A stretch of DNA of 64,000 nt from Myxococcales bacterium (lineage in GTDB: Bacteria; Myxococcota_A; Polyangia; Polyangiales; DASUME01), in contig JASGJH010000001.1 in the NCBI GenBank assembly GCA_047601445.1, positions 1,536,001 through 1,600,000 on the forward strand, in the 5' to 3' direction. Numbering within the stretch: position 1 is the first letter of the stretch; the number at the start of each line of letters is the position of its first letter. Under the pieces are notes generated by a model that saw nothing but the letters and a program-made list of their open reading frames with translations, was not told the DNA's origin and made no database searches. Below are positions 47,502 through 64,000 of this stretch, one piece after another. The translations under genes were made by a program, and so were the position numbers.

Positions 47502-48746
47502 CTAGGGTGCGCTGACCTTGGCCGATGCATGGGCTGGCCCTTGAGCGCTCACGATCCAGCCCGCTAACTCGAGGGCGCCAGCATCGTCCAGCACGTTGGC
47601 GTACGTGGGCATGGGGGTGCCGGGCAAGAAGGCCTCGGGATTTCGGATCCAGCGGGCGACCTCGGCCACATCCTTGCCAGCGGCTTGGGCGAGCTTCTCG
47701 TGGTAGCGGGCGCCCGCGCCGTGGCAGCCGCTACAGCCGAGCTCCTGGAACTTCGCGGCCGGCCCTCGCGCGGTGCCCTTCGCCCGAGACGCCGCCTTGG
47801 CGACGCGGCCCGGCACCTCGTTGACCTTCGCAGGCAATGAACGGAGATAGAGGAACAGCGCATCGAGCTCCTCCTCCCGCGCACCCCGGAAGCGCGGCAT
47901 CGGATAGCCCACCGCGGTGCCGTCGGGACGGATGCCCTCGCGCAGCGCGCGAACGAACTCGTCGCGCGTCCAGCGACCGATGCCCGTGCTCGGATCCTTG
48001 GTGAGGTTGGGCGAGTACACCGCGTGGCCCTCGGCATCCACCATGTCGGCGCCGCCCGCATAGGCATCGGGGCCGCTCAGCTTGTCAGGGTCCATGCCTG
48101 CGGTGTGACAGTCGCCGCACTGGTAGACCGAGTCCGCGAGGTAGCGACCGTAGGCCACGCTGGCGGCGGGCGCCGGTGCCTGGATGCCCGAGCTCGGTCG
48201 CTCCGCCGGGCTCAGCATGCCCGCAGCGAATAGCGCGGCCTTGCCGGCCAAGCTGAGTTCGGAGCGTGGAGCAGGCCGCGGGTCCGGGGCGAACAGCGCG
48301 TCGTCCGTGCGCAAGAACCCGATCACGGCGGCAAGGTCGGCGTCGCTCATGCCATAGGTCGGCATGGGCCCGAGATGCCCGTCACGATTGACGCCGAAGC
48401 GCACCATGCGCGCGATGGCCCCATCGTCGAGCTTACCAATCCCCGCCTGTGGATCCGAGGTCAGGTTGGCGGCGTAGAACCTGCCGAGCCACGCCGGTAC
48501 CTCCGCCATCAGCGCCCCGGAGGCCCGGGTGGCGAACGCAGGCCGATGACACACCTCGCAGCTCGCGTGGAAGATGGCCGCTCCCCGAGCGATGCCCTCC
48601 GGCGACGCGTCGGCCCGGATATCGGGGAATGGCAGGTCGTGGGTGCGCCCAGCCTGGTAAGCGGCCGCCACGAACACCCCCGCCAATGCCAGGCAGACGA
48701 GGCCGAGCACGCTGGCTACAATCCGAAATACTTTGCGCAGCTTCAT
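47502..48746 (-). CDS. Membrane-anchored tri-heme c-type cytochrome
   Basis: CEVCH, CGDCH, CSGCH; ANLTSDP and SPNLTKDP.TGIG.W motifs. Confidence 0.9.
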   Translation of the reverse strand: MKLRKVFRIVASVLGLVCLALAGVFVAAAYQAGRTHDLPFPDIRADASPEGIARGAAIFHASCEVCHRPAFATRASGALMAEVPAWLGRFYAANLTSDPQAGIGKLDDGAIARMVRFGVNRDGHLGPMPTYGMSDADLAAVIGFLRTDDALFAPDPRPAPRSELSLAGKAALFAAGMLSPAERPSSGIQAPAPAASVAYGRYLADSVYQCGDCHTAGMDPDKLSGPDAYAGGADMVDAEGHAVYSPNLTKDPSTGIGRWTRDEFVRALREGIRPDGTAVGYPMPRFRGAREEELDALFLYLRSLPAKVNEVPGRVAKAASRAKGTARGPAAKFQELGCSGCHGAGARYHEKLAQAAGKDVAEVARWIRNPEAFLPGTPMPTYANVLDDAGALELAGWIVSAQGPAHASAKVSAP

Positions 48747-48795
48747 GAAATTCCTCGCGCTTCTCTACGCCCTGGCCGGGGCGTCCCTTGTGACC

Positions 48796-48828
48796 TCGGA
48801 CGCCAAGAGATCGGTTTCGGGCGCCAAG
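48796..48828. promoter_or_regulatory. Direct-repeat AraC-type binding site
   Basis: TCGGACGCCAAG (48796-48807) and TCGGGCGCCAAG (48817-48828), 21-bp period, between divergent starts. Confidence 0.55.
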
Positions 48829-48843
48829 CGCGCGGACCTCGTG

Positions 48844-49854
48844 ATGAACAGCATCGTGCGAGGCCTGTTGGACTTCGCAGAGAGCCGCGGCGTCGTGCGC
48901 GCGGACTTCCTGTCGCGGATTGGCCTCGAGCCCTCCGACCTGGAGGATCAAGACGGCTTCGTCCCGCTCGAGGCCTACGCGCGCGCCTGGGAGTTCCTCG
49001 ATGCCCAGGCCGGTCACGAAGAGCTCGGGCTGGCGCTCGTTGGCGCAGCCTCCCTGCATGCGCTCGGTGCGCTGGGCTACGCCATGGTGCACGCCGAGAG
49101 CGCCCTGGCCGCACTCCTGTTGTTTCGTCGTCATCGCCGCTTGATGAGCGACTCCCTGGCCCCTGAAATCGACGTCGACGACTCCCAGGTAGTCTTCCAC
49201 CTGGTCTGGCCTGCGCGCTTCGCTCGCATCACGGCGCTGGCCGACCAGGCCCTCGCCGGTCCCATCCACGTGATGCGAGCTCTCACCAAGCTGCCCGAGA
49301 GCGTGCCTCTGGCACTCGAGGCTTGGTATCAGGGTCCGCGCCCAGCCGGCATGGACCGTGCGCAAGCCCTCGGCTGCAAGGTGCGCTACGGCGCCCCCGA
49401 GATGCGGCTCGTGCTACGCAGGGAGCCCCTCGAAGCCGCGCTGCCACGTCACGACCCGGAGCTGTTCCGCTACCTCTCACGCCACACCGAGGCCATCGCC
49501 GCCCGCGTACCCCAGACCGCGCCGACGCGTGATTTGGTGCGACGCGCGCTGGTCGAATCGTTGCGCCAGGGCGAGCCCATTCAAGCGGACGTCGGCCGCA
49601 AGCTCGGCCTAAGCGAGCGCACTCTGCAGCGCCGGCTGCGTGACGAGGACACTACCTTCGCCGCGATCCTCGACGACCTGCGCCGCGAGCTCGCGCAGCT
49701 CTACCTGGCCAGCCCGGACGTCAGCTTGCACGAGGTGGCCTTCTTGCTCGGCTACTCGGAGCCGAGCGCCTTCCACCGCGCCTTTCGGCGCTGGACCGGG
49801 CTTACTCCACAGGCCTTCCGACGTTCCGGAGCCCTTCGAGAACCCGCAGGTTGA
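48844..49854 (+). CDS. AraC family transcriptional regulator
   Basis: LGLSERTLQRRL...F...EVAFLLGYSEPSAFHRAFRRWTG. Confidence 0.93.
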   Translation: MNSIVRGLLDFAESRGVVRADFLSRIGLEPSDLEDQDGFVPLEAYARAWEFLDAQAGHEELGLALVGAASLHALGALGYAMVHAESALAALLLFRRHRRLMSDSLAPEIDVDDSQVVFHLVWPARFARITALADQALAGPIHVMRALTKLPESVPLALEAWYQGPRPAGMDRAQALGCKVRYGAPEMRLVLRREPLEAALPRHDPELFRYLSRHTEAIAARVPQTAPTRDLVRRALVESLRQGEPIQADVGRKLGLSERTLQRRLRDEDTTFAAILDDLRRELAQLYLASPDVSLHEVAFLLGYSEPSAFHRAFRRWTGLTPQAFRRSGALREPAG

Positions 49855-50161: not shown

Positions 50162-50911
50162 GTGATCGAACATCTTACTCACGTCATGGTCAGCTCGGGG
50201 GCGGCCTGGGTCCTCTGGCTCTTGTTCAGCTTGAGCTTCGTCTCCGTCGCGGTGGCCGTGGAGCGGGCGCTCGCGTTTCGCCGCACCGGCGGCAACCTCA
50301 CCGTGCTGGTGCCCGAGCTACGCAAGCTGCTTCGCATCGACGCCCATGACCGCGCGAAACAGCTGCTCGATCAGGACGACAGCGTCGAGGCACGCGTGGT
50401 GGCCGCCGGCCTGTCCGAGAGCGACCTCGGCTCCGCTGCCGCCGAAGAAGCCATGGCTGCCGCGATGGGCCTCGAGCGCAAGCGCCTGGAGAAGCGCTTG
50501 TTGTTCCTCGGGACGGTGGGCAACAACGCGCCCTTCATCGGCCTCCTGGGAACCGTGATCGGCGTGGTGGGAGCCTTCGAAGAGCTCGGTAAACCCCAGG
50601 CCATGACCAGCGCGATGGGCACGGCGGCGGCCCTGGCCCCAGAGCGCGTGATGGGCACCATCGCCGAAGCGTTGGTTGCGACCGCGGTGGGCCTGGTGGT
50701 GGCGATCCCTGCGGTGGCAGTCTTCAACTATTTCCAGGGGCGCGTGACGGCTGCCATCGCCGACGCGGAGACGCTGGGCCACGTGCTGTTGGCGCACCTG
50801 CGAGCGGAGCACGATCCTGCGTTACGGCACGCTCAGAGCAAGCAGCTCGCCCAGCAGCAACACCAACCAAGCGCGAGCGAAGGCCGCGTCATCGAGAGTC
50901 CCGCGGAGTGA
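50162..50911 (+). CDS. exbB: MotA/TolQ/ExbB proton channel protein
   Basis: LGTVGNNAPFIGLLGTVIG, IAEALVATAVGLVVAIPA. Confidence 0.9.
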   Translation: MIEHLTHVMVSSGAAWVLWLLFSLSFVSVAVAVERALAFRRTGGNLTVLVPELRKLLRIDAHDRAKQLLDQDDSVEARVVAAGLSESDLGSAAAEEAMAAAMGLERKRLEKRLLFLGTVGNNAPFIGLLGTVIGVVGAFEELGKPQAMTSAMGTAAALAPERVMGTIAEALVATAVGLVVAIPAVAVFNYFQGRVTAAIADAETLGHVLLAHLRAEHDPALRHAQSKQLAQQQHQPSASEGRVIESPAE

Positions 50912-50914
50912 GCC

Positions 50915-51358
50915 ATGGCTGGTTTTTCTTCCAACAAACCGAGCGCACCGATCACCGGCATCAACGTCACGCCGCTCGTGGACATCACCCTGGTGCTGCT
51001 GATCATCTTCATGGTCACCGCCAAGCTCGTGGTCTCGCGCGCGGTGCCGCTGGACCTGCCCAAGGCAGCCACCGGCGGTGAGGTGCAGCAGATTTTCAGC
51101 GTCTCGCTGCGCACCGACGGCGTGAGCTTCGTCGACGGCATGCAGGTCGACTCGGACCGCGAGCTCTTGAACCGAGCTCGCAGCGCCCTCGCGCAACACC
51201 CCGAGCTGCGCGCGGTGGTGCAGGCCGACGGCTCGGTCGAGCACCGCCGCGTGATGCATGCGCTCGACGTGTTGCGCCAGGCGGGACTGTCGCGGGTCGC
51301 CTTCGGGGTGTCCCTGGGCGCGCCGGTCGAGGCCCTGGAGATGGAGCCTTCCCAGTGA
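50915..51358 (+). CDS. exbD: ExbD/TolR biopolymer transport protein
   Basis: INVTPLVDITLVLLIIFMVT, LDLPKA, QADG.V. Confidence 0.92.
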   Translation: MAGFSSNKPSAPITGINVTPLVDITLVLLIIFMVTAKLVVSRAVPLDLPKAATGGEVQQIFSVSLRTDGVSFVDGMQVDSDRELLNRARSALAQHPELRAVVQADGSVEHRRVMHALDVLRQAGLSRVAFGVSLGAPVEALEMEPSQ

Positions 51359-52233
51359 GTTCGCCCTGGGAGCTCGCCGAACTCGACGCGGGCGGCGACC
51401 TCTCGCAGCTCACGCGGCTCGCAAAGGACAGGCCGCGTTGTCGCGCGCTCGATGAGTTTCCGGTCAGCTCATGGAACGCGCCTCTGATGGCTGCGGCAGG
51501 CACGCTGTGCGCCCACGGTGCGCTCGTACTGCTAGCGACGTGGCTTGGGCTGCGTCAGCCCCGTCCGCGCGTCGAATCGGTACCGGTGACCCAGATGATG
51601 GAGGTCGACCTGACGCCTCCACCCCCCAAGCCCGTTGTGCCCGAAGAGCACTCGCCCGATCGCCTAACCGAGCCAAGCGCCAAGGCGCCCGTACCGCGCA
51701 TGCGCGAGCCCAAGCTCGAAGCGCCAAAGCCTCCCACGCAGGCTGCCCCGCCGCCCGCCGCGGCTGAAGCTGCTCAGGTACTCACGCAGGAGTCTCCCGT
51801 GGCGGACGTCGGCGAGGCCATCGTGGTCGGTAACGCGGCCGTGCACGCGGGGGGAACCAGCGAGGCCGGAGGCACTGCCACGCACGCCGTGCACGACCTC
51901 GCTGCGCGCGCGGGCGGCGTCGAAGCTGGCACGGGGCGAGACCTCGCGGCAGATCGCTCGCGTCAGCCGGCGCTGGCCGGCGGCTTCGAGTGGGATTGCC
52001 CCTTCCCCGAGGAAGCAGAAGACGAAGGCATCGACGACGGCCACGTGACACTGCGGGTCGAGGTTGGTGCCGACGGCAGCGTGCTCGAGGTGCAGGTGCA
52101 ATCCGATCCGGGCTACGGCTTCGGCCGCGAAGCCAAGCGCTGCGCGCTGCGCAAGCGCTGGGTCGCAGGGCTCGACCGCGCAGGCCTGCCCACGCGCTCG
52201 GCGGCCCTCGTGCGGGTGAAGTTCGAGCGCTGA
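51355..52233 (+). CDS. tonB: Energy transducer TonB
   Basis: TM helix with His, Pro-rich linker, FPEEA...GID.G.V.LRVEV..DG TonB_C; GTGA overlap with exbD. Confidence 0.8.
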   Translation: MSSPWELAELDAGGDLSQLTRLAKDRPRCRALDEFPVSSWNAPLMAAAGTLCAHGALVLLATWLGLRQPRPRVESVPVTQMMEVDLTPPPPKPVVPEEHSPDRLTEPSAKAPVPRMREPKLEAPKPPTQAAPPPAAAEAAQVLTQESPVADVGEAIVVGNAAVHAGGTSEAGGTATHAVHDLAARAGGVEAGTGRDLAADRSRQPALAGGFEWDCPFPEEAEDEGIDDGHVTLRVEVGADGSVLEVQVQSDPGYGFGREAKRCALRKRWVAGLDRAGLPTRSAALVRVKFER

Positions 52234-52261
52234 CGCCTCCGTCGCGCCGGCTCGAAAGGCC

Positions 52262-53590
52262 TTACTCCTCGTCGAGGTCCACGCGCCCGAAGCGCGGGTT
52301 CACGATGGTGTTGTGGACGCTGCCGAAGGTGTAGGTCAGCGCGAACTCGCCGACGAGCATGAAATCCGTCGGTTGTTGCACGGTCCACAGCAGCAGCTCG
52401 TGATCGGTGACCGGTCTACCCCGCAGGTTGATCAGGTCCTTCACGTAGGCGGACTCTCCCTCGAGGGTCATGGCCAGGCCCTCGAACAGCCGCAAACTCA
52501 GCACTACGCCCATGCTCACCCGGTACAGACGCGGATCATCGAGGAACATGTTGACCTGTCCGATCCACTGCACGCTGCCCCAGGGCTGGTTCACGTCGGC
52601 GATCAACGAGAGCGCGTGGTAGGGGCGAACCTCCTGCAGGATTTGCTCGGTGTTGCGCTCGAAGTAGCGGTTGGCCCAAACGCCCACCTGATAGGCCGTG
52701 CGCAGCTGCCGCGTCGCGTTCTCCGTGTAGGGGAACGCGTTGATCTCCACGATGGGTCCACCGTTCAGGTGCCAGCGTACGTTCTCGAACTCGCTCGCTT
52801 CGGCGGTGGCGATGGCGCCGAGGGCCATGTGATGGCGCACCGAGTGCGCGTAGACCCCGCGGCCGTTCCAGCCGAACACGTCACCGCTGATGCGGCGGCC
52901 GTCTTCGAGGCGATAGCCGGTGAAGTGCCGCTCGTACCCGCCGCGCAGCCGAAACTTGGAGCTGTCCGTGATGCGCCGCACGGTGAGCGCGGAGGTGGCC
53001 TCGACGAAGTAGTAGCCGCTACCGGCCTCGCCACTCCCGCCGAGTTCGGGAGTGAAGACCCAGTAGTGCCAGGGGTCGGTGAGCTTGCTGAGCGTGGTGT
53101 TCTCGCGCTTGGGGATACCGAGTTCGAAGGCGGCTCGATGTGGTGTGTCCTCGAGGGCCAGGTAGAGCACACGCAGGCTGAGCTGGAGCACGCGCTCACG
53201 CACGGAGTGGGCGGGCGCGTAGGGTGGCAGCGCAGTGGACTCCGAGCCCTCACGCTGGAACGCGCCGTCACGCAGGCGTCGGCTCAAGGTCACCGTCCAG
53301 CGCTCACCACCGTTGCCAGCGGGCTGCCGCACCAGGAGCAGCGTGAAATCTGCCAGGTGGGGATCACGCACGAGGTCGAAGTAGCTGAGCTCCTGGCGCA
53401 GGTACGAGTCGAAGCACTCGCCCTGACAAGACAAGAACACGCGCGGCACGGCAGCCGGCCCCTGGGCGCGCGCAGTCGGAGTCAGCGCCGAGGGCAGGCT
53501 CCAAAGGAGGAGGAGAAGGAGCGCCAGCGCCGCCCGAGCGCAGAGCCGACGATCACGGAGCAGCAGGCAGGCAAGGCACGGAGGAGACAC
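52262..53590 (-). CDS. Uncharacterised outer-membrane protein (about 440 aa)
   Basis: Signal peptide; VFLSC..C..SYLRQEL.Y...VRD...AD N-terminal domain; DPWHYWVF then amphipathic beta strands; ends TYTFGS..N.IVNPRF; start uncertain. Confidence 0.75.
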   Translation of the reverse strand: MSPPCLACLLLRDRRLCARAALALLLLLLWSLPSALTPTARAQGPAAVPRVFLSCQGECFDSYLRQELSYFDLVRDPHLADFTLLLVRQPAGNGGERWTVTLSRRLRDGAFQREGSESTALPPYAPAHSVRERVLQLSLRVLYLALEDTPHRAAFELGIPKRENTTLSKLTDPWHYWVFTPELGGSGEAGSGYYFVEATSALTVRRITDSSKFRLRGGYERHFTGYRLEDGRRISGDVFGWNGRGVYAHSVRHHMALGAIATAEASEFENVRWHLNGGPIVEINAFPYTENATRQLRTAYQVGVWANRYFERNTEQILQEVRPYHALSLIADVNQPWGSVQWIGQVNMFLDDPRLYRVSMGVVLSLRLFEGLAMTLEGESAYVKDLINLRGRPVTDHELLLWTVQQPTDFMLVGEFALTYTFGSVHNTIVNPRFGRVDLDEE

Positions 53591-53633
53591 GGTTTCGACA
53601 GCTGCGCCCGAGCCGTTCTGATCGGGCGTTATT

Positions 53634-53822
53634 GATAATGAAAATCCTATTCTAAATAGCGAGCCTGGCCGACCTGTCAAGCCGCGCCCCCCTACGCGCA
53701 GGACACCATTCTGGAATTTTCGCGCAGCAATCGAGTGAAGCGAAAGCCGACCGAGCCGCGTCAAGCCACGGATCGGGTCGAATAGCGCGGGTCAAACTCA
53801 CGCGAAGATGAAAACGGAAGTC
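53634..53822. promoter_or_regulatory. Fur box plus a second Fur-like site upstream of the OM protein
   Basis: GATAATGAAAATCCTATTC (53634-53652; 15/19 to the Fur consensus) and GAAGATGAAAACGGAAGTC (53804-53822). Confidence 0.65.
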
Positions 53823-53863: not shown

Positions 53864-55241
53864 TCAGGTCCCGCGGCGCCTTACGAGTAGCTCCACCATC
53901 ACCGGCTTCGACGGCCGCACGGTGCCGATGGCCACGGGCCTCACGTCATGACAGGGCCGCAGGTTGAACTCGTAGCGGAGCAGCATCTGAGCCACCAGGA
54001 TGGTGGTCTCGATGAGCGAGAATGTGTTGCCGATGCAGATGCGGGGGCCGATGGAGAACGGCAGATAGCTCCCCGGGTGCCGCCCCTTGTTGCGAGCCGG
54101 CTCGAAGCGCTCTGGATCGAAGCGCTCGGGTCGTTCCCAGGTGATCGCGGTGCCGATGCGCCGCCCAGATGAAGGGCAAGACGACCTCCCCTGCTTCCAC
54201 GCGATAGCCCCCGAGCTCGTCGGCGGCCACGGCGTTGCGCCCCACGATGGCCGCGGGAGGGCGCAGGCGCAGCGTTTCATCGATGACCTGCCGGACGTAC
54301 TGGAGTTTCGGCACGTCGGCGAACCCAGGATCGCGACCACCGAGTACGCCATCCACTTCTTCGACCATGCGGCGCAGCACCTCGCGTTCTTCGGAGAGCA
54401 GCGCGAACAACCAGGTCAACGTGAGCGCGGTGGTCTCGTGTCCGGCGAGGAAGAGCGTCAGCACCTCGGAGCGCACGGCCTGGTCGGAGAGGGGCTGGCC
54501 CTGTTCGTCGCGGGCATCGAGCAACATGGAGAGCAGCGTGCCCGAGTCGGCGCCCCGCTCGCGCCCCACTCGGATGATGTCGTAGACGTTTTGGTTGAGC
54601 TCACGCAACGTGCGTCTGAATTTGAAGTTGTGGGGCGTGGGCAGCCAGCTCGGCAGCGGCACACCGTTGACGCCGTTGCTGAGCACCTCCAGGGCCTCGC
54701 TCATGGTGTGGTAGGAGATTGCACCGCTCGCCAACGTACCGGGTCCGAACAGCGCGTTGACCACCACGTCCATGGTGACCGCGACCATCTCGCGATGGAT
54801 ATCCAGGGTTTTCGAGGTAGTGCCGATGCGCGCGGAGAGGTCGTCGAAGTAGCGGGCGCCACGATCGATCATGATCTGCGCGAGCCGCTCCAAAGATTGC
54901 CGATGGAATGCCGGTTGCGCGAGCGTACGCCGAGCGCGCCAGGCTTCCCCTTCCAAGGTCACGAGCCCATCGCCCACCAAGGTCCGCAAGTGGTCGTAGA
55001 CGGGCCCCTTCACGTAGTTCTGACGCTGTCCCAGCAGCACACGTTGAAGGTCGTCGGGGTGGGCCGCCACGGTGGCGCGCATGCTGGCGGTGCGGATACG
55101 AAACACGTCGCCGTGCACCGCCCACTGCTGCTCGAAGAACGGCAAGAGTCCGCGGAACACCCCGAGGTTGCCGACCACCGGCCAAGCCCGCGGGCCAGGG
55201 GCCACGCGTTTTACGCTCTCGATCGTCTGCGTCTCTTGCAT
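53864..55241 (-). pseudogene. Cytochrome P450 with a +1 frameshift near 54140 (real lesion or sequencing error)
   Basis: AGHETT and ETLR in one frame; PERF and [10 protein letters not shown] heme motif in another; removing one C gives ...HRHRDHWERPERF..., 458 aa. Confidence 0.9.
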
Positions 55242-55323
55242 GGGCTTCCCTCGTCCTTCGGTTTCAGGCCCGGATGGGCGGGCGATGGCTCGATTGGCAG
55301 GTCACGTCGTCTCGCTGGTGGTC

Positions 55324-55899
55324 TCAGTAATCGGCGGGCGCGCACAGGCTGACGCCACGCGCAGCGGCTCCCGCAATGCCTTCATTGCAACGTTCGCCCG
55401 CGGCGCAGTCGGAGTCACAAAAGCAGTACGTGCGGCACGCGCCCGCCACGCAGGTCTGCTGCGGCGGACAGGTGGTCGAGAGCGCCGACTCTCCGCACGG
55501 AGTCGCCGGCAGCCCACTGAAGACACAGCGTCCGGTGAGCGGGCTGGCCTGCGGATCCAGCGTGCACTGGGTGACCCCTGCGGTGCAGCCGGTATTGCGG
55601 ACTGGATCGCAGCCAGTCACCGCGGCTGGCACGCATTGCTCCGGCTGACCTGCGTCGTCCCGCGAGCTCGCATCGGCCACGGCCCCATCGGAGCGCGGCT
55701 CGGGCTTGGAGGCATCGTGGACCGGATCCTCAGGGTCGGGGTCGTCATCGCCGTCGGCTTCTGGCTCGCTCGGCTCGAGCACAGCCCCATCGCGGCCCGC
55801 GTCCTGCTGAGGCTCCACCAGCGCCAGAGCGTCGCCGCCGGACCCGCCGAAGCGACAACCCGCGAGGACCAGCCACAGCATCCTGCGCAGCGCCCTCAT
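55324..55899 (-). CDS. Cys-rich lipoprotein
   Basis: Lipobox LAGC, acidic linker, CDPV.NTGC...C...CRTYCFCDSDC; ATGA overlap with the FadL-like gene. Confidence 0.8.
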   Translation of the reverse strand: MRALRRMLWLVLAGCRFGGSGGDALALVEPQQDAGRDGAVLEPSEPEADGDDDPDPEDPVHDASKPEPRSDGAVADASSRDDAGQPEQCVPAAVTGCDPVRNTGCTAGVTQCTLDPQASPLTGRCVFSGLPATPCGESALSTTCPPQQTCVAGACRTYCFCDSDCAAGERCNEGIAGAAARGVSLCAPADY

Positions 55900-57416
55900 A
55901 GATTCACCGCCAAGTACAAGCCTGCCGTGGTCAGCCAGCCTCCGCTGGAGAAGCCGGGCCAGCCAGGATTGTTGGTCTGCAGGCCCGCGGCACCGGCAAT
56001 GGGCACGCCGCTCAACTGGGCGTCATCTGGTACTTCGTCTTTGACGAGCGAAGGAGTGCGGTCGCGACCGTCGGCAAAACTCGGCGGCGTGAGCTTGCGA
56101 ACCGACCGATGCAGCAGCCAGAAGCTCTGCAATGACACGCCCAGCCTCAACGTCGTATCGAGGACACGAAATGCGTAGTCGAGGTTGAGGTTGGTGCCCA
56201 CCCGGTCGTTGTCCACGTAGTTCGAGCGTCCGAACTGGAGTGGCACCGGGGTCGGCTTGTACTGGAGATCGAGGCCGACTCGCAAGTCGTGGAACGTGCC
56301 TCGCAGCCCCACCGCGGGCGTGATGGTATCCTGCCAGGCGAGCCCAGGTAGAGGTCGCTCGCCATGACGATCGACGTAGCGAGACCAGCGACCGAACAAC
56401 GCCGAGGCGGACAGTGTCAGGGTGCGCGAAGCCTGCTGCAGCACGTCGACGCTGGTGCCTAGCGAGGCCTGCCAGGGCATCCAGTCGAACACGAAGTGCA
56501 TGCTGGAGGTCTGTTCCAGGCCGCTCGCGAGCAAGAACCGGACGTGGGCGTCCACCTGCTGCCGCTGCGGAGCGTGCAACGTGCCCGTGATGCGCCAGCG
56601 CGGCAACGGGTTCCAGGCGAAGCCACCATGCGGCGCGAAGCCCACGTTGCCCTGGGCGTCCACGTTGAGCACCAGGTCCTGCAGTCGAGCTGCGTCGGCC
56701 ACGAACACTGGCGTAGTGGCCGCGGCGCGCACGACGAAGCTGCTGCCGAGCCCGAGCGAGAAGGCTTTGTTGAAGCGATAGCCAATCCCCGTCGACATGG
56801 CCAGGGGCGAGGTACGATCCCCGTACAGCTCCGGGTGCAAGCTGTTCGAGAGGTATTGTTCACGCTCGTCCACGTAGAAGCTGCGCATGCGCAGGAACGG
56901 CTGGTTGGGAATGAGTCCGTAGAGGCCGATCGAGAGCCGCCGCTCGAAGAACTGCGCCACGATGCCAATGGCCTCGTAGCTCTGGGTGCCCTTCCCGGTC
57001 CCCGCAGCTTGCCTCGGACGCGCACTGGTGGCGCTGTGAATGCTGGACTCCTCCCGACCGTGCTCGAGGATGTCCGTGCCGAGGGGATAGCCATCGAAGC
57101 GCGTACCGTCGGCATGGGCGGCGTTCTCGAAGTCGTTGGGCACGTCGGCGCGCGGGTCGCCACGGGCCGCGACCTGTACATCGATCGCGCTGTGTAGGAT
57201 CAGAACACCCAGGCTGACTCCAGTGCTTCCGTCGCCCAAGAGTGCGGGATTGAAGTAGGCAGCCGAGGCACCGTTGGCCAGGGTGCGTCCCTGCTGTCCG
57301 CCCTGATCGCCGATCGAGCCGCCGAGCTCGAGCAGCGGAGAAGCATGGACGGGCCCTGCGAGCCACATGCTCCAGGCCAAGAGGCACACCGCCAACCAGC
57401 ACCGCTCAATACGCAT
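55896..57416 (-). CDS. OmpP1/FadL family outer-membrane channel
   Basis: Signal peptide; ASAAYFNPALL FadL signature; PTPVP.Q.GRSNYVDNDR; beta strands. Confidence 0.8.
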   Translation of the reverse strand: MRIERCWLAVCLLAWSMWLAGPVHASPLLELGGSIGDQGGQQGRTLANGASAAYFNPALLGDGSTGVSLGVLILHSAIDVQVAARGDPRADVPNDFENAAHADGTRFDGYPLGTDILEHGREESSIHSATSARPRQAAGTGKGTQSYEAIGIVAQFFERRLSIGLYGLIPNQPFLRMRSFYVDEREQYLSNSLHPELYGDRTSPLAMSTGIGYRFNKAFSLGLGSSFVVRAAATTPVFVADAARLQDLVLNVDAQGNVGFAPHGGFAWNPLPRWRITGTLHAPQRQQVDAHVRFLLASGLEQTSSMHFVFDWMPWQASLGTSVDVLQQASRTLTLSASALFGRWSRYVDRHGERPLPGLAWQDTITPAVGLRGTFHDLRVGLDLQYKPTPVPLQFGRSNYVDNDRVGTNLNLDYAFRVLDTTLRLGVSLQSFWLLHRSVRKLTPPSFADGRDRTPSLVKDEVPDDAQLSGVPIAGAAGLQTNNPGWPGFSSGGWLTTAGLYLAVNL

Positions 57417-58416
57417 CGGCCGTCAACTCGGGCGCGAGGCTGCGCACGCTGGCACAGACCTCGCTGTCGGTGCCCACGGCCTGGGCCGCAGAGAGCTTGG
57501 CGAACACGGCGTAGTGCAGCGAGGCGTCGCCGTCCTTGGCGCCGGCTGCCTTGAGGGCATCGGTGGTGACCCCGAGCACCGACTCTTCCTGGCCCCAGTC
57601 GAGCGGCAGGCGAAACGTCGTGGCGCGCTTGTCGACTTGCCCGCTGTAGCTGGTCCAGGAGCGCGATGCGCTGTAGCGCGTGCCGTTCAACACACCGCTG
57701 ATGTGGATGGAGATGCCCGGCTGGCCGTCGCGGTCCCAATCTTCCCAACCTACCGTATCGCCCTGGGCCGGCTGTTCGAGCGACGGCAACGGTCGACTCG
57801 TATCGCCGTAGTACGGCATGGTGGCGCCTAACACGCGGTAGTCGCGGCCCCACTGGACGCTGCAACGGCTTCCCATCAGCTTGGCTTTGCCGGTCCGGCG
57901 ATGCGGATCGTTCTTGGCTTGCATGGCTGGCCACGCTTCGTGCATGTCGATACTGACGCCCAACGATCCGACCCGATTGGCCCCGGTCCCACAGACCAGG
58001 CCCTTTTTCACGCGCAGGTTCTCCCCACTCTGCTCGACCTCCAGATACACCCACCACAGCGTGGCCTGCTTGATGCCGAGACCACTCGCCACGAGGCGCT
58101 CGGTGATCAACCAGCGCCCGCTGAAGTCGCAGTCCGGGTTGGCAGGGATGGCGCCCGCGTCGCCGCCCATGCCCGCGTCGAAGTCACCGGCATCGGGTTC
58201 CGGCGCGGGTCCCTCGTCGCTCTCCGCATCCCCTGCTGCATCGGGCGCGGATGCCGCGCCATCGCGGGGCTCATCGTAGGAAGACGCGTCTGCATAGCGA
58301 TCGGGCGGCACCTCGGTCACGAAGCACCCTCCGTGACAAAGCGCTGCTACGAGTACTGCGTTGCGTGCCAGCGGCGGCGTCGCGCAAGCGCGGTCTACGA
58401 ACGCCATCCTCACCAT
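57406..58416 (-). CDS. Hypothetical lipoprotein (beta-rich, possibly lipid-binding)
   Basis: Lipobox-like HGGC, DAG-rich linker, CDFSGRW, WEDWDRDGQPGI; overlaps the FadL start by 11 nt. Confidence 0.7.
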   Translation of the reverse strand: MVRMAFVDRACATPPLARNAVLVAALCHGGCFVTEVPPDRYADASSYDEPRDGAASAPDAAGDAESDEGPAPEPDAGDFDAGMGGDAGAIPANPDCDFSGRWLITERLVASGLGIKQATLWWVYLEVEQSGENLRVKKGLVCGTGANRVGSLGVSIDMHEAWPAMQAKNDPHRRTGKAKLMGSRCSVQWGRDYRVLGATMPYYGDTSRPLPSLEQPAQGDTVGWEDWDRDGQPGISIHISGVLNGTRYSASRSWTSYSGQVDKRATTFRLPLDWGQEESVLGVTTDALKAAGAKDGDASLHYAVFAKLSAAQAVGTDSEVCASVRSLAPELTADAY

Positions 58417-58598
58417 GCCTCCAGGCGCGAATCCCGCGCCAACCCATCCGCCACGGACGAAGGGCACGCGCCGCCCGTGCGCGGCGATGCCCGTGTATTC
58501 ATGTCCGGGAAGGCACGAAGTTATGACCACCAGGTGAACTTTTTTGAAGCCTCCCCGGCATCCCGCCCCACCGGCGCCCTGCGCCGCCGCGCCCAACG

Positions 58599-60362
58599 TC
58601 AGCTCGCGAAGTCGGCGGCGATCACATGCTCGATATTGCGCTCCGCCAGCGCCGTGATCGAGAGGCTCGGGTTCGCCCCCAGGCCGATGGGAATCAGGGA
58701 GCCATCGGTCACGTACAGCCCGGGGTACTCGCGAATCCGCCCGTATTCGTCGGTCGCCTCACCAAGCGGCACGCCGCCGAGGGGATGATAGGTGCACTGG
58801 TCCCCGAATTGCCCGTTGTCCTGAAAGGTGAGCTGGGTCGAGTACGCGGTGCCGTTCGCCGCGTTGACCTGATCGAAGATGTACTTGGCGGCCGCCACCG
58901 AAGGCTCGTTTTGTGAGCGAGTCCACTGGAGGTTTACGCTGTCGCTGCCCGCGTCGTACTTGAAGTAGCCGGCTTCGGGGTTATCCGCGATCAGGATAAT
59001 GAAGGATTGCCACGAGGGGACGCCCACCGGAAAGGGGGCAAACTCCGCCACGGTGCGCCGGCCCTTGCCATCGCGCGTGATGAGGCAGTGGGAAGGAATG
59101 GTGCACTGATCCGCGCCCGTCGGCAGGGAGAGCGGGGTATCGAGAGCCACGAACAGATCGCCGTTCGGGCCCCACTTGGTGCCGACCTTCTCGTTGAGGT
59201 TCGGCAGATCGCCGCGTTCACGGGCCGCCACCAAAAGCTCGCTCGTGGCCATGCTGCCCGCACCGACGAACAGGTGAGTGCAGCTGAACTCCTTGCGCCC
59301 GAGCACGCTGCCCTTGAGATCGATGTTCTCGACCTCCACCACGTAGCCGCCTGCCCCATTGGGTTTGATGCGCTTCACGATGTGCAGAGCGTGGAGGGTC
59401 AACAAGCCCGTCCCGAGGGCCTCAGCCAGGTAGGTCTTATCGAGACTGCGCTTGCCGTAGTTGTTGCCGAAGCCCGCCTCGCCGCCCAGTGCCGAGCGCG
59501 GCACCTGGTTGTCGAGCTCGCGCTCCATGTAGTCGAAGTCGTAGCCAGACTGGAGCTGGGCCCACTTGAAGCCCGCGTTGCGCGCGAGTTCGATGCCCAC
59601 GCGAGAGTAGCGATAGAACTCCGAGTCGATCATGCGCTGTGAGGCGGAACCTGCGTGGAGCATCATCTTCGCGCGCGGCAGATAGGTCCCGTAGAACGCG
59701 TCGGCGTCCACCGCCGGCAGGGTGCGCTCGAACATCGAGCGATCCGGCGCGAGGTAAAGCGCCATGTTGACCAGCGAACCGCCACCGACCCCTCGTCCCT
59801 GATAAACACGCATCTCGCGCGGCCCGCGCGCCTCGAGCACACCTGCCTCCACCGGAGTCTCCATCTCGGTGGACACGCCGAGGAAGGTCTTCACCTGGGC
59901 CTCGGTCTTGCTCTGGAACCACATCGCCCGACCGTCGGGCGTGAAGGGCTTGCAGAAGATCTTGCCGTCGTCGCCAGGGGTGTTCCAAAGCCGCCCCGCC
60001 TCCAGCATCGTCACCGGAATGCCTGCCTCCGTCAGGCGCAGGGCCGTCACCGCGGATCCGTAGCCGCTGCCGATGATCAACACCGAAACTCCGTTGCGAT
60101 CCACGCGCACACCCGAGTCGTTCAGCGTTGCCGCGTCGTGCCCGGCGTCCGTGGTCCCCGGCTGGCCTCCGCCCGTGGCGGCATCTCCCGCGCCGGCGTC
60201 GTCCTCCGAAAGATCATGATCGTCCCGCGCATGCCCCGCTGCAGGGCTACCGCCGCAGGCACCGAGCAACCCGAAACTCGCCACGCGCCCGAGGGAAAAG
60301 CTCGTCATGCCCAGGCTGGCGGCAACCCGAAAGGCCTGCCGACCAAAGTCGCGTCGATTCAT
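58599..60362 (-). CDS. choA: Cholesterol oxidase (GMC, Streptomyces ChoA type) with a Tat-lipoprotein signal
   Basis: RRDF Tat motif plus LGAC; IIGSGYG.AVTALRL, DGKIFC, GRGVGGGSLVN, NNYGK.SLDKTYL; catalytic-equivalent AEFAP, YHPLGG and GANP motifs. Confidence 0.88.
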   Translation of the reverse strand: MNRRDFGRQAFRVAASLGMTSFSLGRVASFGLLGACGGSPAAGHARDDHDLSEDDAGAGDAATGGGQPGTTDAGHDAATLNDSGVRVDRNGVSVLIIGSGYGSAVTALRLTEAGIPVTMLEAGRLWNTPGDDGKIFCKPFTPDGRAMWFQSKTEAQVKTFLGVSTEMETPVEAGVLEARGPREMRVYQGRGVGGGSLVNMALYLAPDRSMFERTLPAVDADAFYGTYLPRAKMMLHAGSASQRMIDSEFYRYSRVGIELARNAGFKWAQLQSGYDFDYMERELDNQVPRSALGGEAGFGNNYGKRSLDKTYLAEALGTGLLTLHALHIVKRIKPNGAGGYVVEVENIDLKGSVLGRKEFSCTHLFVGAGSMATSELLVAARERGDLPNLNEKVGTKWGPNGDLFVALDTPLSLPTGADQCTIPSHCLITRDGKGRRTVAEFAPFPVGVPSWQSFIILIADNPEAGYFKYDAGSDSVNLQWTRSQNEPSVAAAKYIFDQVNAANGTAYSTQLTFQDNGQFGDQCTYHPLGGVPLGEATDEYGRIREYPGLYVTDGSLIPIGLGANPSLSITALAERNIEHVIAADFAS

Positions 60363-60420
60363 GGGCCTGAAACCTAGTCATGGCGACACCGAGCACTCCA
60401 TGGCCGCGCGCGGCCAATCA

Positions 60421-60571
60421 CTTGCTGTCGGCAGCAAGCGTGGATGGGAGGGCACGCCCCCTCGCCGCCCGTCCCATCGCAGAGATTCGCGGTGCTCACG
60501 GTTTGGGTGCACGCGCACGGAGTTCGCCCGGCGCGGATAGCCAATCAATGGCCGCGGCCAGCAATTGCTGG
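60421..60571. promoter_or_regulatory. Palindromes in the divergent oxidase/esterase promoter region
   Basis: CTTGCTG-TCGG-CAGCAAG (60421-60438) and CCAGCAATTGCTGG (60558-60571). Confidence 0.4.
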
Positions 60572-60604
60572 ATAGCCCACCGACTGACTAGCTTCGGCTC
60601 ACTT

Positions 60605-62077
60605 ATGACAGCGCCTCGCCATGTTGCTCACCACTCCTTGATCGTCCGCTTCTGCTTGCTCGCTGCGAGCCTCACCGCCTGTTCGGATGGCGGCCGAGCC
60701 CAGGGGGCCCCGCCCAACTCCTCGGCCGGCGATGGCGACGGGGATGGCGATGGGGATGGGGACGGCGATGGAGATGATACCGACGAGGGGGACGGCGACC
60801 GCCCCGGAGTTGGCGATGGAGACGGAGACGGAGACGGTCATGGAGATGCCGGCACCGACGCCGGATTCCGAGGCTCGTATCAGGAGGTCTTCGATCAGGG
60901 CCTCACGCGCTACGTCGGGACCCCACAAGTGAAAGAGACGGAGGTCACCACCTCCGGAAGCGGCGACACCCAGCTGCAAATCCACCACTTCTCCAGCGAC
61001 AACCGCGGTCCCGCGTGCATGTACGGCGACGAGTACTTCGTGGAAACCCGCCAGGGTTCCTCGGACACACTGATGATCTTCCTGCAGGGTGGCGGCGTGT
61101 GCTTGACCGAGATCTGCGCGGCCACGCCCTCGCCCATCCTCTCGCTCCAGCTATTCGACGTCGCTAGCTCCATCGGCATCGGCGGCCTTCTCGACCCGCG
61201 TAACGCCAACAACCCCACCAAGGACTTCGACGTCGTCAATGCGCCCTACTGCGACGGATCTCTGTTCGCAGGAGACGTGGACCGCATCCTCTCCGACGGC
61301 AACGACAGCAACGGGAAAGACGATCAAGCCTACCAACGCGGGCTGCAGAACCTCACCGCCACGCTGGAGACCGCCCACCGCCTGTTCCCGTCCCCGCCGC
61401 GCATCGTGCTGATCGGCTCGAGCGGAGGAGCTTACGGCGTCGTCGCGGGGACGGTGCTCACGCGCTACTTCTATCCGGACACGCCGCTGCTCGTGATCTC
61501 CGATTCGGGCGCCCCCATCGTGAACGGCATCGACAAGGGCTTCATCACGCGCGCGCTCACCGAGTTCAACGCCATCAGCCTGATCCCGAAGTCATGTCCG
61601 GACTGCCTCGCCAACGGGCACGCCACGGGCATGCTCGAGTGGGCCCTCGATCTCGACCCCCAGCTCACGGTCGCCTACATGACCCACGCGCGCGATCACG
61701 TGATCGGTGAGTTTTTCATGAAGACCACGGCGGATCAGTTTCAGGCCGCCGTGGTGGGCGAGACCGATCGCATGCTCGCCAAGTTCCCCGACCGCGCCTA
61801 TCGCTTCGTCATTCCCACCAACCGCCACACGCTCACGATGGGCCTCGACGACCTTCCCGACGGACTCCAGGGCTCGGTGCTCGGTTTCGCAGGCGGCCTG
61901 GGCTTCGGCTTCATCGGCCCGGACGTCAACAGCGAAGCGCTTTCGACCTGGGCCATGGGCGGCATGAAGGAGACCGGGAAGGACGACGACGGGAAGGCCT
62001 GGACGGGCTACGACTGGGTCCGCAGCTTGCTCAACGATCCATCGAACACGCCGAGCGTGTTGCAGCTCCAACCGTGA
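60605..62077 (+). CDS. Pectinacetylesterase/Notum family hydrolase, lipoprotein with a (GD)n linker
   Basis: Lipobox LTAC; IFLQGGGVC, PYCDG, nucleophile GSSGG, DSG. Confidence 0.85.
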   Translation: MTAPRHVAHHSLIVRFCLLAASLTACSDGGRAQGAPPNSSAGDGDGDGDGDGDGDGDDTDEGDGDRPGVGDGDGDGDGHGDAGTDAGFRGSYQEVFDQGLTRYVGTPQVKETEVTTSGSGDTQLQIHHFSSDNRGPACMYGDEYFVETRQGSSDTLMIFLQGGGVCLTEICAATPSPILSLQLFDVASSIGIGGLLDPRNANNPTKDFDVVNAPYCDGSLFAGDVDRILSDGNDSNGKDDQAYQRGLQNLTATLETAHRLFPSPPRIVLIGSSGGAYGVVAGTVLTRYFYPDTPLLVISDSGAPIVNGIDKGFITRALTEFNAISLIPKSCPDCLANGHATGMLEWALDLDPQLTVAYMTHARDHVIGEFFMKTTADQFQAAVVGETDRMLAKFPDRAYRFVIPTNRHTLTMGLDDLPDGLQGSVLGFAGGLGFGFIGPDVNSEALSTWAMGGMKETGKDDDGKAWTGYDWVRSLLNDPSNTPSVLQLQP

Positions 62078-62204
62078 GCCAACGCGCGCATCCTGGTAGG
62101 CCACGCCACACGTTTCAGAGGTGACACCAGGGCCCGACGGTTTCATAATCGGCCAGCGCCGGCGCGACTAAGGCAGGTTGCACCGGTGGAGGTAGTGGCC
62201 TGCG

Positions 62205-63359
62205 ATGAGCACCCTTCGGTCCTATGCACCCGGCATGGATGACTCGCCTAGGTCCGCCTCGGAGCGGCCTGTCGACGGGCAGAGCGTCGCGTCCAAACCT
62301 CCGCAAAGCATGAACCCCGGCCCTGATTCACCGAGCAACCTGGCGGTTTCTACCATCTCCATGGCGGTGGTGCGTGGGCTGGTCGAGGCCGTGGAGCAGG
62401 CGGGCGTAGAGCGCGCCATCTTCCTGAGTCGCGCCGGCATCGAACTGGAGAGCCTGCAGGCCGCCGACCTGCGCATCCCGCGCGCCGAGGGGTTCCGGGT
62501 GTGTGAGTTGGCGCTCGATCTCACCGATGATCCCGCGTTCGGACTCCACTGGGTCGAGCGCCTCAGTGAGCGCATGTTCGCGCCCGTCTCACATCTGATT
62601 GCCCACTGCCCGAGCCTGCGCGACGGGCTCGCGCTGCTGGCGCGGTTTTTCCGCCTGCTCGGTGACGACGCGCCCTATCGGGTGCTCGAGGACGGCGACC
62701 GCGTGACCATCCAGTGCTTCAGCACGGATCATCCGAGCGTGCGCACGCGCCGCTTCGAGGCCGAGATGCTGATGGGGGGATTCTGGAAGCTGGTTCGCAG
62801 CTTCAACATGAATGCGCGCCCGGAGCAGGTCAGCTTCAGCTACCCCGCGCCTCCCTATCACGCCGAATACACGCGCCTCTTCGAGGGCCTGCAGCGCTTC
62901 GACGAACCCTTCACCGGCCTCGTCTTCGACAGCGCGCTACTGAACGCCCCGTCGCCCCAGAAAGACGACGACGTACGCGAGGCCCTGCAAGCGCTCGCCG
63001 AACGGCGCCTCCTGCGCGTGACCCACAGCACGCCGTACTCCACGCGCGTCCGCGAGTTCCTGGTGCGCGAGGGACTGCCGCACCGGACGGACATGCAGAG
63101 CGTGGCCCGCGCGCTCGATATCAGCGTGCGCTCGTTACGCAGGCGGCTCGAGGAAGAATCCAAGCCCTACAACGAGATCCTCGGCGAGGCACAGGCAGCC
63201 GTGGCCAGGCAGCTGCTGCAAGATCACCGGCGCACGATCCAGGAGATCGCCTACGAGATGGGGTTCTCCGACCCGAGCACCTTCCATCGCGCGTTCAAGC
63301 GCTGGACCGGCATGACGCCGAGCGCCTACCGCGAAGAGCTGCTGCGCAACTCGGGCTGA
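62205..63359 (+). CDS. AraC family transcriptional regulator
   Basis: DDPAFGLH N-terminal domain; SVRSLRRRL...IAYEMGFSDPSTFHRAFKRWTG; start uncertain. Confidence 0.93.
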   Translation: MSTLRSYAPGMDDSPRSASERPVDGQSVASKPPQSMNPGPDSPSNLAVSTISMAVVRGLVEAVEQAGVERAIFLSRAGIELESLQAADLRIPRAEGFRVCELALDLTDDPAFGLHWVERLSERMFAPVSHLIAHCPSLRDGLALLARFFRLLGDDAPYRVLEDGDRVTIQCFSTDHPSVRTRRFEAEMLMGGFWKLVRSFNMNARPEQVSFSYPAPPYHAEYTRLFEGLQRFDEPFTGLVFDSALLNAPSPQKDDDVREALQALAERRLLRVTHSTPYSTRVREFLVREGLPHRTDMQSVARALDISVRSLRRRLEEESKPYNEILGEAQAAVARQLLQDHRRTIQEIAYEMGFSDPSTFHRAFKRWTGMTPSAYREELLRNSG

Positions 63360-63493
63360 GGCGAGCTAGCCCCGGCTGGTGTCGTTGAACACCATGACAG
63401 CGCGTTGGCCGGCTCCGCCTTACCATCTCTCTGACGAGCGCTCGCGGCCACTTCCAGCCGTTGCGTGCTCCCATCCAGGAACCTGCGGGGGAC

Positions 63494-64000
63494 ATGGTAA
63501 ACGCGGAACCGTCCTACGATCGCGCGCTGTACTTCGACGCCACGGTGCTCGCCTTCTCGCTTCGCTACTTGAGCCTCTATTTCTCGGGCGAACAGCTATT
63601 GGCGCGGGTGGCCCTGATGCTCGGTCGCACTGCTGCCTCGATGGGAGAGGCCCACCAGCTGGCGGCCGCAGGCCCCCTCGAGGACCTGTGCTGGCTGTTG
63701 CGGAACACGCCCGCGGCAGAGCAGATTCTGCTCACTCATTTGCTCCTCGCGACCGCGGCGCCGACCTACGACGCAACCCATCGACAGGGCCTGATGCGTG
63801 ACGCCGAGGCGCTCGGCGTGAACAAATCGGAGTTCGAGCGCATCGAGAACGACGTGGCCGCCCGCATGGGCCTGCTCGGCTATCCACGCCTCGGGCCGCC
63901 CCCACTTCGCTTCCCCCCGCGCGAGCTCGAGTTCGTGCAAGTCCATGGCGGCGAACGTCTGCACGTGGTGCTCGGCGTGCCGGGCTTCCTCGGCATCGCC
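63494..64000 (+). CDS. 5' part of a gene running off the window; possible DUF726/TMCO4-like hydrolase
   Basis: Open from ATG 63494 to the window end: ...TYDATHRQGL...LGV...FERIE...ELEFVQVHGGERLHVVLGVPGFL; not in the ORF track. Confidence 0.55.
   Translation, partial: MVNAEPSYDRALYFDATVLAFSLRYLSLYFSGEQLLARVALMLGRTAASMGEAHQLAAAGPLEDLCWLLRNTPAAEQILLTHLLLATAAPTYDATHRQGLMRDAEALGVNKSEFERIENDVAARMGLLGYPRLGPPPLRFPPRELEFVQVHGGERLHVVLGVPGFLGIA

Follow-up and report, generated by a model that had tools for sequence, protein, structure and literature searches.

Several described bacterial systems combine an outer-membrane channel of the FadL type, or an enzyme acting on sterols, with partners in the cell envelope. 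In Vibrio cholerae the lipoprotein hydrolase VolA and the FadL channel free and import acyl chains (PMC3656444), and AupA and AupB of Marinobacter are described as a conserved two-gene unit, often multicopy, of a FadL-like channel and a dedicated partner (PMC5989066). The Streptomyces cholesterol oxidases ChoA and ChoD (1b4v; PMC5722936, PMC13170338) are GMC-fold enzymes with twin-arginine export, and ChoD is reported to be induced together with a P450 and lipases in yeast predation (PMC13170338). Cholesterol uptake by Sterolibacterium denitrificans is described as FadL-type passage with oxidation of the 3-hydroxyl and isomerisation before or after it (PMC6208644, PMC6678751), and the BstABC proteins of Methylococcus handle sterols in the envelope of a bacterium that makes them (PMC10942540). 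Here we analyse a seven-gene locus of a Myxococcales bacterium that shares features with each of these systems. It lies at positions 53,864 to 63,359 of a stretch of 64,000 nucleotides (hereafter the window; assembly GCA_047601445.1, contig JASGJH010000001.1, positions 1,536,001 to 1,600,000 of the forward strand).

All seven predicted genes were confirmed as open reading frames (ORFs) in the window and their family assignments hold. The minus strand carries a cholesterol-oxidase homologue, an unnamed lipoprotein, a FadL-fold barrel, a Cys-rich lipoprotein and a cytochrome P450, and the plus strand carries an esterase and an AraC-family regulator. The lipoprotein and barrel genes overlap by 11 nt and the barrel and Cys-rich genes by 4 nt; gaps of 182 nt and 82 nt separate the oxidase from the lipoprotein and the Cys-rich gene from the P450, respectively. 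An earlier note on this DNA had described five genes on one strand, the middle three overlapping, with divergent esterase and AraC genes, which agrees with the ORF coordinates; its ChoA-type oxidase, FadL-type channel, Notum/pectinacetylesterase lipoprotein and AraC regulator agree with our profile and fold matches. The complete seven-gene set was found in the host genome only. The locus is not a single conserved operon; it consists of two modules, one made of the oxidase, esterase and AraC genes (module A) and the other of the lipoprotein and the barrel (module B).

The likenesses to the described systems have clear limits. In VolA-FadL the partner of the channel is a hydrolase, whereas the channel-coupled gene here encodes a beta-barrel lipoprotein that is not an enzyme, the divergent esterase is of the Notum/pectinacetylesterase type, and an oxidase and a P450 are added. 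AupB is described as an inner-membrane protein and the substrate as an alkane, and it is by this description that we set AupB apart from the lipoprotein found here. Compared to the Streptomyces oxidases, our enzyme has a lipoprotein anchor, a remodelled pocket, a Gram-negative host that carries genes for sterol synthesis and an AraC-type operator in common with the esterase. Sterolibacterium denitrificans is described with the NAD-type AcmA and a complete degradation pathway, while here the oxidase is of the O2-dependent type and none of the ring-degradation enzymes searched for exceeds its cut-off. The locus also lacks a Bst-type gene, although TatT genes stand beside some related loci, and FadL is absent from the main text of PMC10942540. 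By analogy, the locus would work like the lipid scavenging of VolA-FadL or AupAB without being a member of those systems. A description of this gene set or of the lipoprotein family was not found in the open-access literature searched, supplements and subscription papers being outside its scope.

The oxidase and the esterase are probably co-regulated. Their promoters have in common a 29-bp operator with matching -35 and -10 boxes, and co-regulation is well supported because the motif also stands upstream of the oxidase and esterase orthologues in a rearranged metagenome locus. The copy facing the oxidase (60371..60426, minus strand) comprises the operator at 60398-60426, whose final bases overlap a -35-like box, and the -10 box TAGGTT at 60371-60376, with the start codon 8 nt past it. 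The copy facing the esterase (60539..60594, plus strand) comprises the operator at 60539-60567 and the -10 box TAGCTT at 60589-60594, followed after 10 nt by the start codon. Such an arrangement of operator, -35 and -10 boxes is the expected layout of AraC-activated promoters. A generic promoter scan of the window detected neither promoter. A sigma-54 site was ruled out as an identity for the motif, the spacing from GG to GC being 15 nt instead of the 10 of the consensus.

Two operator sites are found in the window, where 0.05 are expected, and the 9.5-Mb genome contains no other exact site. In leave-one-out scoring seven of the eight sites reached 13-31 bits, while the 99th percentile for 7488 upstream regions is 9; the eighth, from a locus without AraC, failed at -22.8 and was excluded from the second matrix. 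A TAnnnT box, which is outside the matrix and has a frequency of 0.14% per position, keeps one register in six of the seven training sites, the remaining site deviating by 1 nt, and among six held-out sites it is in exact register once and off by 1 nt twice. Held-out matches stand before a further oxidase (19.6 bits), a further esterase (15.9 bits), a GDSL-like lipoprotein (23.4 bits) and an alpha/beta-hydrolase lipoprotein; the match before the second oxidase of the host genome has 12.0 bits (rank 17 of 7488). Of the neighbours of other AraC genes, only 2/81 score at least 10 bits. The match before the GDSL-like lipoprotein gene is the third-best; this gene stands with a DAPG-hydrolase-like gene in the host genome (G000 C1:2956946-2958835, L174), with no -10 box at the common register. 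In a relative (G007) an exact match stands upstream of an exbB orthologue, oriented away from it.

The candidate activator is the AraC-family protein itself (62205..63359, plus strand, start possibly at 62361; PF12625 and PF12833), whose orthologue adjoins the esterase orthologue in four of the five loci with an esterase at least 70% identical. At one locus, L134, the order is oxidase-AraC-esterase, with identities of 73, 58 and 77%, respectively. The esterase (60605..62077, plus strand) belongs to the Notum/pectinacetylesterase family: it scores 31 bits for PF03283 (cut-off 26.6), and the triad residues expected for it (Ser, Asp, His) do not vary across 18 aligned homologues. Its other profile matches are weak (Notum, E ~0.002; Candida-type lipase A, E 5e-4), and a single-sequence search of the PDB gave no match. 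To our knowledge there is no sequence marker for steryl-ester hydrolysis.

The oxidase gene (58599..60362, minus strand) encodes a class I (GMC) cholesterol-oxidase homologue with a twin-arginine signal and a lipobox. It matches the Streptomyces cholesterol oxidase 1b4v with E 1.5e-151, 1coy with E 3.5e-140 and Pfam PF22500, and is ~50% identical to the Streptomyces enzyme across the entire catalytic domain. Class membership is indicated by the GMC fold, the whole-domain homology and the retention of E361, H447 and N485, the catalytic roles of which are described in PMC5722936; N119, P364 and Y446 are retained too (residues are numbered as we read them off the alignment to 1b4v, with an offset of +5). 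The enzyme falls in a clade of 27 proteins with 65-100% identity, in which position 361 is Glu in 21 and Gln in 6. Outside this clade, the position of this isomerase base is occupied by Met in 70/88 remaining full-length homologues (among P0001-P0120), including the second oxidase of the host genome (G000 C1:4058963-4060561, L024:8964-10562). Judging from this residue, Met-type oxidases may oxidise without isomerisation or may prefer sterols without the 5,6 double bond. Trees place the clade of our oxidase within the Met group, the monophyly of which is not rejected (p-AU 0.29), and we have considered that E361 may have been regained from a Met ancestor. Distant oxidase homologues at L144, L145, L154 and L156 adjoin an unnamed short lipoprotein-like gene that has no match to the profile of the barrel's partner.

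In module B, the barrel (55896..57416, minus strand) is a predicted FadL-fold outer-membrane protein. Its AlphaFold2 (AF2) model (predicted local distance difference test, pLDDT, 83.6) has 14 long strands and an N-terminal plug, i.e. the architecture of FadL and TodX, and a Y-F-N-P motif is nearly invariant in the alignment. Foldseek aligned it to 3dwo with E 2.4e-16, VIA gave Z 28.7 for TbuX and 27.6 for PaFadL, and the family profile matched FadL structures with E 7e-6. The match to Pfam PF03349 (Toluene_X; E 1.4e-4) reached 20.9 bits, below the cut-off of 29.7.

The conserved partner of the barrel is the unnamed lipoprotein encoded directly upstream (57406..58416, minus strand). It consists of a low-complexity tether followed by an up-and-down beta-barrel domain of ~245 residues, in which there are four conserved Cys and a loop resembling DxDxDG; the predicted barrel has eight strands (AF2 pLDDT 95.7). 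Neither Pfam, NCBIfam nor the PDB contained a sequence match, a profile search of the PDB gave nothing real, and Foldseek found nothing at E<=0.001. The best VIA score, Z 8.8 (root-mean-square deviation 2.8 over 103 residues), was to assorted 8-stranded barrels; in a comparison with small ligand-binding barrels of the lipocalin, avidin and YceI types, this score does not distinguish the domain from unrelated barrels. At 50% identity the family falls into 704 clusters, and Atlas searches returned only unnamed Myxococcota clusters.

The barrel is present in 36/151 genomes. In the 40 barrel loci that we compared, all from other genomes, the lipoprotein lies directly upstream of the barrel in 31, and four of the remaining nine are at contig ends. 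We also sampled 400 genomes of the phylum, where 150 of 291 barrel matches were listed, the own genome being left out. Among the matches listed, the lipoprotein is adjacent to the barrel in 9/11 at E<1e-130, in 26/34 between 1e-130 and 1e-80 and in 8/102 weaker ones. The order of the two genes is reversed in the 1e-130 to 1e-80 group across Myxococcota, and since the pairing is kept despite the inverted order, the two genes appear to form a functional unit. The host genome has ~13 further FadL-type genes, most of which adjoin a lipoprotein gene, and another esterase of the pectinacetylesterase/Notum family is directly upstream of a FadL gene. Specifically, four ~1200-residue lipoproteins lie directly upstream of FadL genes and a pectinacetylesterase-family lipoprotein lies 18 nt upstream of another (G000 C1:1416688, 4294709, 7282494, 8619628, 3461140). 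FadL genes of other subfamilies occur near a Met-type oxidase (L138:9988-11259) and near a 73% esterase orthologue with a P450 (L158:7244-8953); this proximity is possibly due to chance because there are ~14 FadL genes per genome.

The Cys-rich lipoprotein and the P450 are optional members of the barrel module. The former (55324..55899, minus strand) has a lipobox and no Pfam match, and the Atlas gave only unnamed Myxococcota clusters, below 0.9; its gene is directly downstream of the barrel in 8/40 loci. The P450 (53864..55241, minus strand) lies within three genes of the barrel in 5/40 loci. A single additional base near 54142 puts its gene into two frames (+1 frameshift); the Pfam p450 domain is found in both frame pieces, and the AGxET, ExxR and heme FxxGxRxCxG motifs are present over both frames. 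DNA alignment showed that a 63% identical paralogue and the orthologues of two relatives are intact at this point. An assembly error is possibly the cause, and plausible because four other loci among ten paralogue sets (~90 loci) of the host genome have frame changes. The earlier note had assigned sterol hydroxylation to the P450, for which we found no clear support: the protein is not recognisable as a sterol P450, and among solved structures the intact paralogue best matches carotenoid and unnamed bacterial P450s (carotenoid hydroxylase 1e-60, 7wzl 1.5e-57, CYP4B1 3e-44, cholesterol 24-hydroxylase 5e-41). We take 7wzl to be CYP184A1. In Streptomyces, choA is said to share an operon with a P450 gene (choP-choA). 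CYP184A1 is reported to bind oleic acid (PMC11214959).

How are the two modules linked? The 182-nt gap between oxidase and lipoprotein (58417..58598, minus strand) contains neither a terminator-like site nor an operator copy, and without a terminator-like site read-through from the oxidase is predicted to be possible. By this route the barrel operon may belong to the regulon of the oxidase and esterase, a proposition to which we give about even chances. At two other loci the oxidase and the lipoprotein are found together: in L152 they overlap by 1 nt, and in L136 the oxidase is two genes away from a lipoprotein-barrel pair, amid acyl-CoA ligases, with an operator match of 12.9 bits before the lipoprotein. 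The genomic context of the close oxidase clade comes from three loci (L134, L135 and L136), of which L135 begins inside the oxidase and shows nothing downstream. Since the lipoproteins of the window, L136 and L152 fall in separate subclades, the link to the oxidase arose or was retained more than once, though it is rare.

The host genome (9.5 Mb, single contig, 98.7% complete) provides a sterol context. It encodes a squalene epoxidase-squalene synthase fusion, CYP51, an ERG4/ERG24-family reductase and an SdmA-like oxygenase. The oxidosqualene cyclase proposed as a check in the earlier note is represented by a cyclase-like enzyme that scores 710.8 bits, under the TIGR03463 cut-off of 851 and over that of TIGR01787. 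The fusion unites a squalene epoxidase-like domain with squalene synthase in a single ORF of 1138 residues, after which the cyclase gene comes (G000 C1:4796802-4802260, L133). CYP51 sits away from the locus, in a cluster with a 3-beta-HSD-like gene, an SdmA-like Rieske gene, an aldehyde dehydrogenase-GMC fusion and a 223-residue regulator-like ORF (G000 C1:9105517-9113122, L180). The companion check for kstD/hsa ring-degradation genes turned out negative, with no enzyme of 9,10-seco steroid degradation over its family cut-off (HsaA, HsaD and IpdAB were not searched): KstD gave N-terminal fragments only (best 33.9 bits), HsaC-type dioxygenase TIGR03213 gave 44 (cut-off 366) and FadD3 gave 372 (cut-off 657). 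Two KshA_C-like genes are present and not clustered. Of the sterol scavenging suggested earlier, growth on the steroid ring is therefore unlikely, the ring-degradation models being below cut-off.

Our preferred reading, to which we give somewhat less than even confidence, is an inducible envelope unit for steryl-ester hydrolysis, sterol oxidation and product import, which would serve in harvesting or weakening eukaryotic membranes and not in mineralising steroids. A lipid signal would bind AraC, which would activate both divergent promoters via the operators overlapping the -35 box. The exported esterase, judging from its family, would split steryl esters into sterol and fatty acid, and the Tat-exported oxidase would convert 3-beta-hydroxy-5-ene sterols to 4-en-3-ones and H2O2, as its identity to the Streptomyces enzyme and its catalytic residues suggest. 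The barrel operon would be transcribed by read-through from the oxidase promoter, and the tethered lipoprotein would hand over the hydrophobic product to the FadL channel or receive it from there; depending on the topology of the lipoprotein, oxidation may take place outside or after channel passage. The P450, if intact, would hydroxylate the imported lipid, a fatty acid being at least as likely as a steroid. In this scheme we infer the substrates, the binding of AraC, the read-through, the uptake and the role in predation. Because sterol-synthesis genes are present and ring-degradation genes were not found, the cell would gain acyl chains and an altered sterol pool, and the membranes of eukaryotes would be weakened. 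It is a more speculative, and in our view unlikely, extension that predatory, sterol-making Polyangiales carry an AraC-switched kit against eukaryotic membranes, where the esterase and lipid-anchored oxidase attack and harvest prey sterols, the tethered lipoproteins are a new family serving a FadL subfamily found throughout Myxococcota as its dedicated sterol/lipid receptor, and foreign sterol enters a cell unable to degrade the ring.

A number of observations weigh against the inducible envelope unit, in addition to the frameshift in the P450, the remodelled pocket of the oxidase and its score of 92.7 bits for the NCBIfam cholesterol oxidase equivalog NF058674 (cut-off 850; the Streptomyces enzymes were not scored for comparison). 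The surroundings of the pair were counted within 6 kb of 49 barrel/lipoprotein loci, which are related to each other, and an oxidase was found near none of them. Oxidase homologues occur in 53/401 genomes of the order; of 51 such genomes searched further, 10 have the lipoprotein, which is adjacent to the oxidase in only one (L152). The earlier note would have given up its proposal if FadL and lipoprotein genes usually occurred without sterol enzymes, and for the oxidase this is largely the case. The two paralogous barrel/lipoprotein pairs of the host genome are both without oxidase. An operator score of at least 10 bits precedes 1/57 lipoprotein genes (that of L136) and 0/61 barrel genes; the score before the lipoprotein of the window is -4.6, and the barrel operon has no operator copy. 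The motif was first noticed by eye in intergenic DNA and anchored after the sequences had been viewed, and 2/6 exact hits in other genomes precede neither a hydrolase nor an oxidase. Within module A, the AraC-esterase loci L157, L159 and L160 have no oxidase close by, and esterase and oxidase are unlinked in 15/15 genomes with distant homologues of both (read by eye). In favour of the unit, lipid-related genes are found near the 49 loci, namely TatT at 5, P450 at 6, F420-LLM at 3, and KshA-like and KstD-like genes at 2 each, all above their own-genome densities, as well as MMPL and START at 2 each. This tilt is suggestive only, because the GST control family is enriched too (4 loci, 0.45 expected) and the distant barrel-first clade shows it in 0/15 loci. 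The envelope sterol pathway of the earlier note is accordingly retained in part, with the common operator, the FadL fold and the linkage in L136 and L152 in its favour and the lack of co-conservation of the seven genes against it.

The 0/49 loci with an oxidase nearby and the lack of an operator before the lipoprotein lend weight to the main rival, a chance mosaic, in which a real AraC-esterase-oxidase regulon came by accident to lie upstream of a barrel-lipoprotein-P450 operon that is independent of it, is driven by a promoter of its own and serves fatty acids or other lipids. The 182-nt gap, the paralogous module with a divergent P450 and no oxidase, and the closest barrel orthologue (78%), which adjoins a toxin-antitoxin pair and no oxidase, all fit it. 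However, the adjacency of oxidase and lipoprotein recurs in two other subclades, the genes are co-oriented over a gap without a terminator-like site, and we estimate random direct adjacency at well below 1% per gene (4 lipoprotein genes in 7488); on balance we regard the mosaic as somewhat unlikely. The enzymes and channel might also act on the sterols of the cell itself, which would be modified, moved or released for membrane tuning or signalling. The sterol-synthesis genes of the host, the TatT proteins beside 5/49 loci (the family of the sterol carrier BstC, PMC10942540) and reports of cholesterol synthesis in Polyangiaceae and Sandaracinaceae (10.1101/2024.11.01.621555) and of conjugated oxysterols in Enhygromyxa (PMC10202945) are in line with this, but the synthesis genes are neither in the locus nor among the top motif matches, an activator-type promoter common to several exported hydrolases would rather fit an outside substrate, and characterised FadL channels import. 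We therefore find the remodelling of own sterols improbable.

The nature of the substrate and the role of the barrel leave room for two further alternatives. The substrate of the oxidase could be some other cyclic or long-chain secondary alcohol, and that of the esterase the corresponding ester, e.g. of a plant or microbial terpenoid or phenolic compound. Six pocket differences from the Streptomyces enzyme (G120M, M122L, F359V, M365F, F444C and F487S), largely fixed in the 27-member clade, point in this direction, as does the motif before the GDSL-like gene coupled to a DAPG-hydrolase-like gene. Against this, the identity over the catalytic domain is ~50%, the three catalytic residues are retained and the host carries sterol genes, which makes a non-sterol substrate quite improbable. 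Finally, the barrel could be a protein scaffold or shuttle that displays the lipoprotein at the surface, like the FadL-fold chains found in the complexes of type 9 secretion and in the BAM complexes of Bacteroidetes. The Z scores to these chains are 22.5-24, the lipoprotein resembles Neisseria surface lipoprotein domains (small beta-barrel, Z ~5), and the distant clade has no lipid-gene context; nevertheless FadL, TbuX and TodX score higher (Z 26-29) and are the sole sequence-profile matches, so that we consider a scaffold very improbable.

Further genes lie around the locus. At 50162-53764 of the window an exbB-exbD-tonB operon is convergent with a gene for an unnamed, ~400-500-residue probable outer-membrane protein that has no Pfam match; the gene for a multi-heme cytochrome c at 47502-49854 diverges from a second AraC gene, and a DUF726 gene at 63461-64000 continues past the window end.

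The inducible envelope unit touches on two open questions, the roles of sterols in myxobacteria and the uptake of sterols by Gram-negative cells, and the locus offers three handles on them. It has a defined operator and a candidate activator that connect the sterol oxidase with the esterase; it contains a member of an undescribed lipoprotein family that is paired with a FadL subfamily phylum-wide; and its lipid-anchored oxidase clade occurs in a host in which sterols are made, not degraded. Steryl-ester activity, if true, would be a new chemistry among bacterial Notum-like enzymes, and if the reading as a whole is true, the locus would allow the harvest of sterol esters from eukaryotic material.

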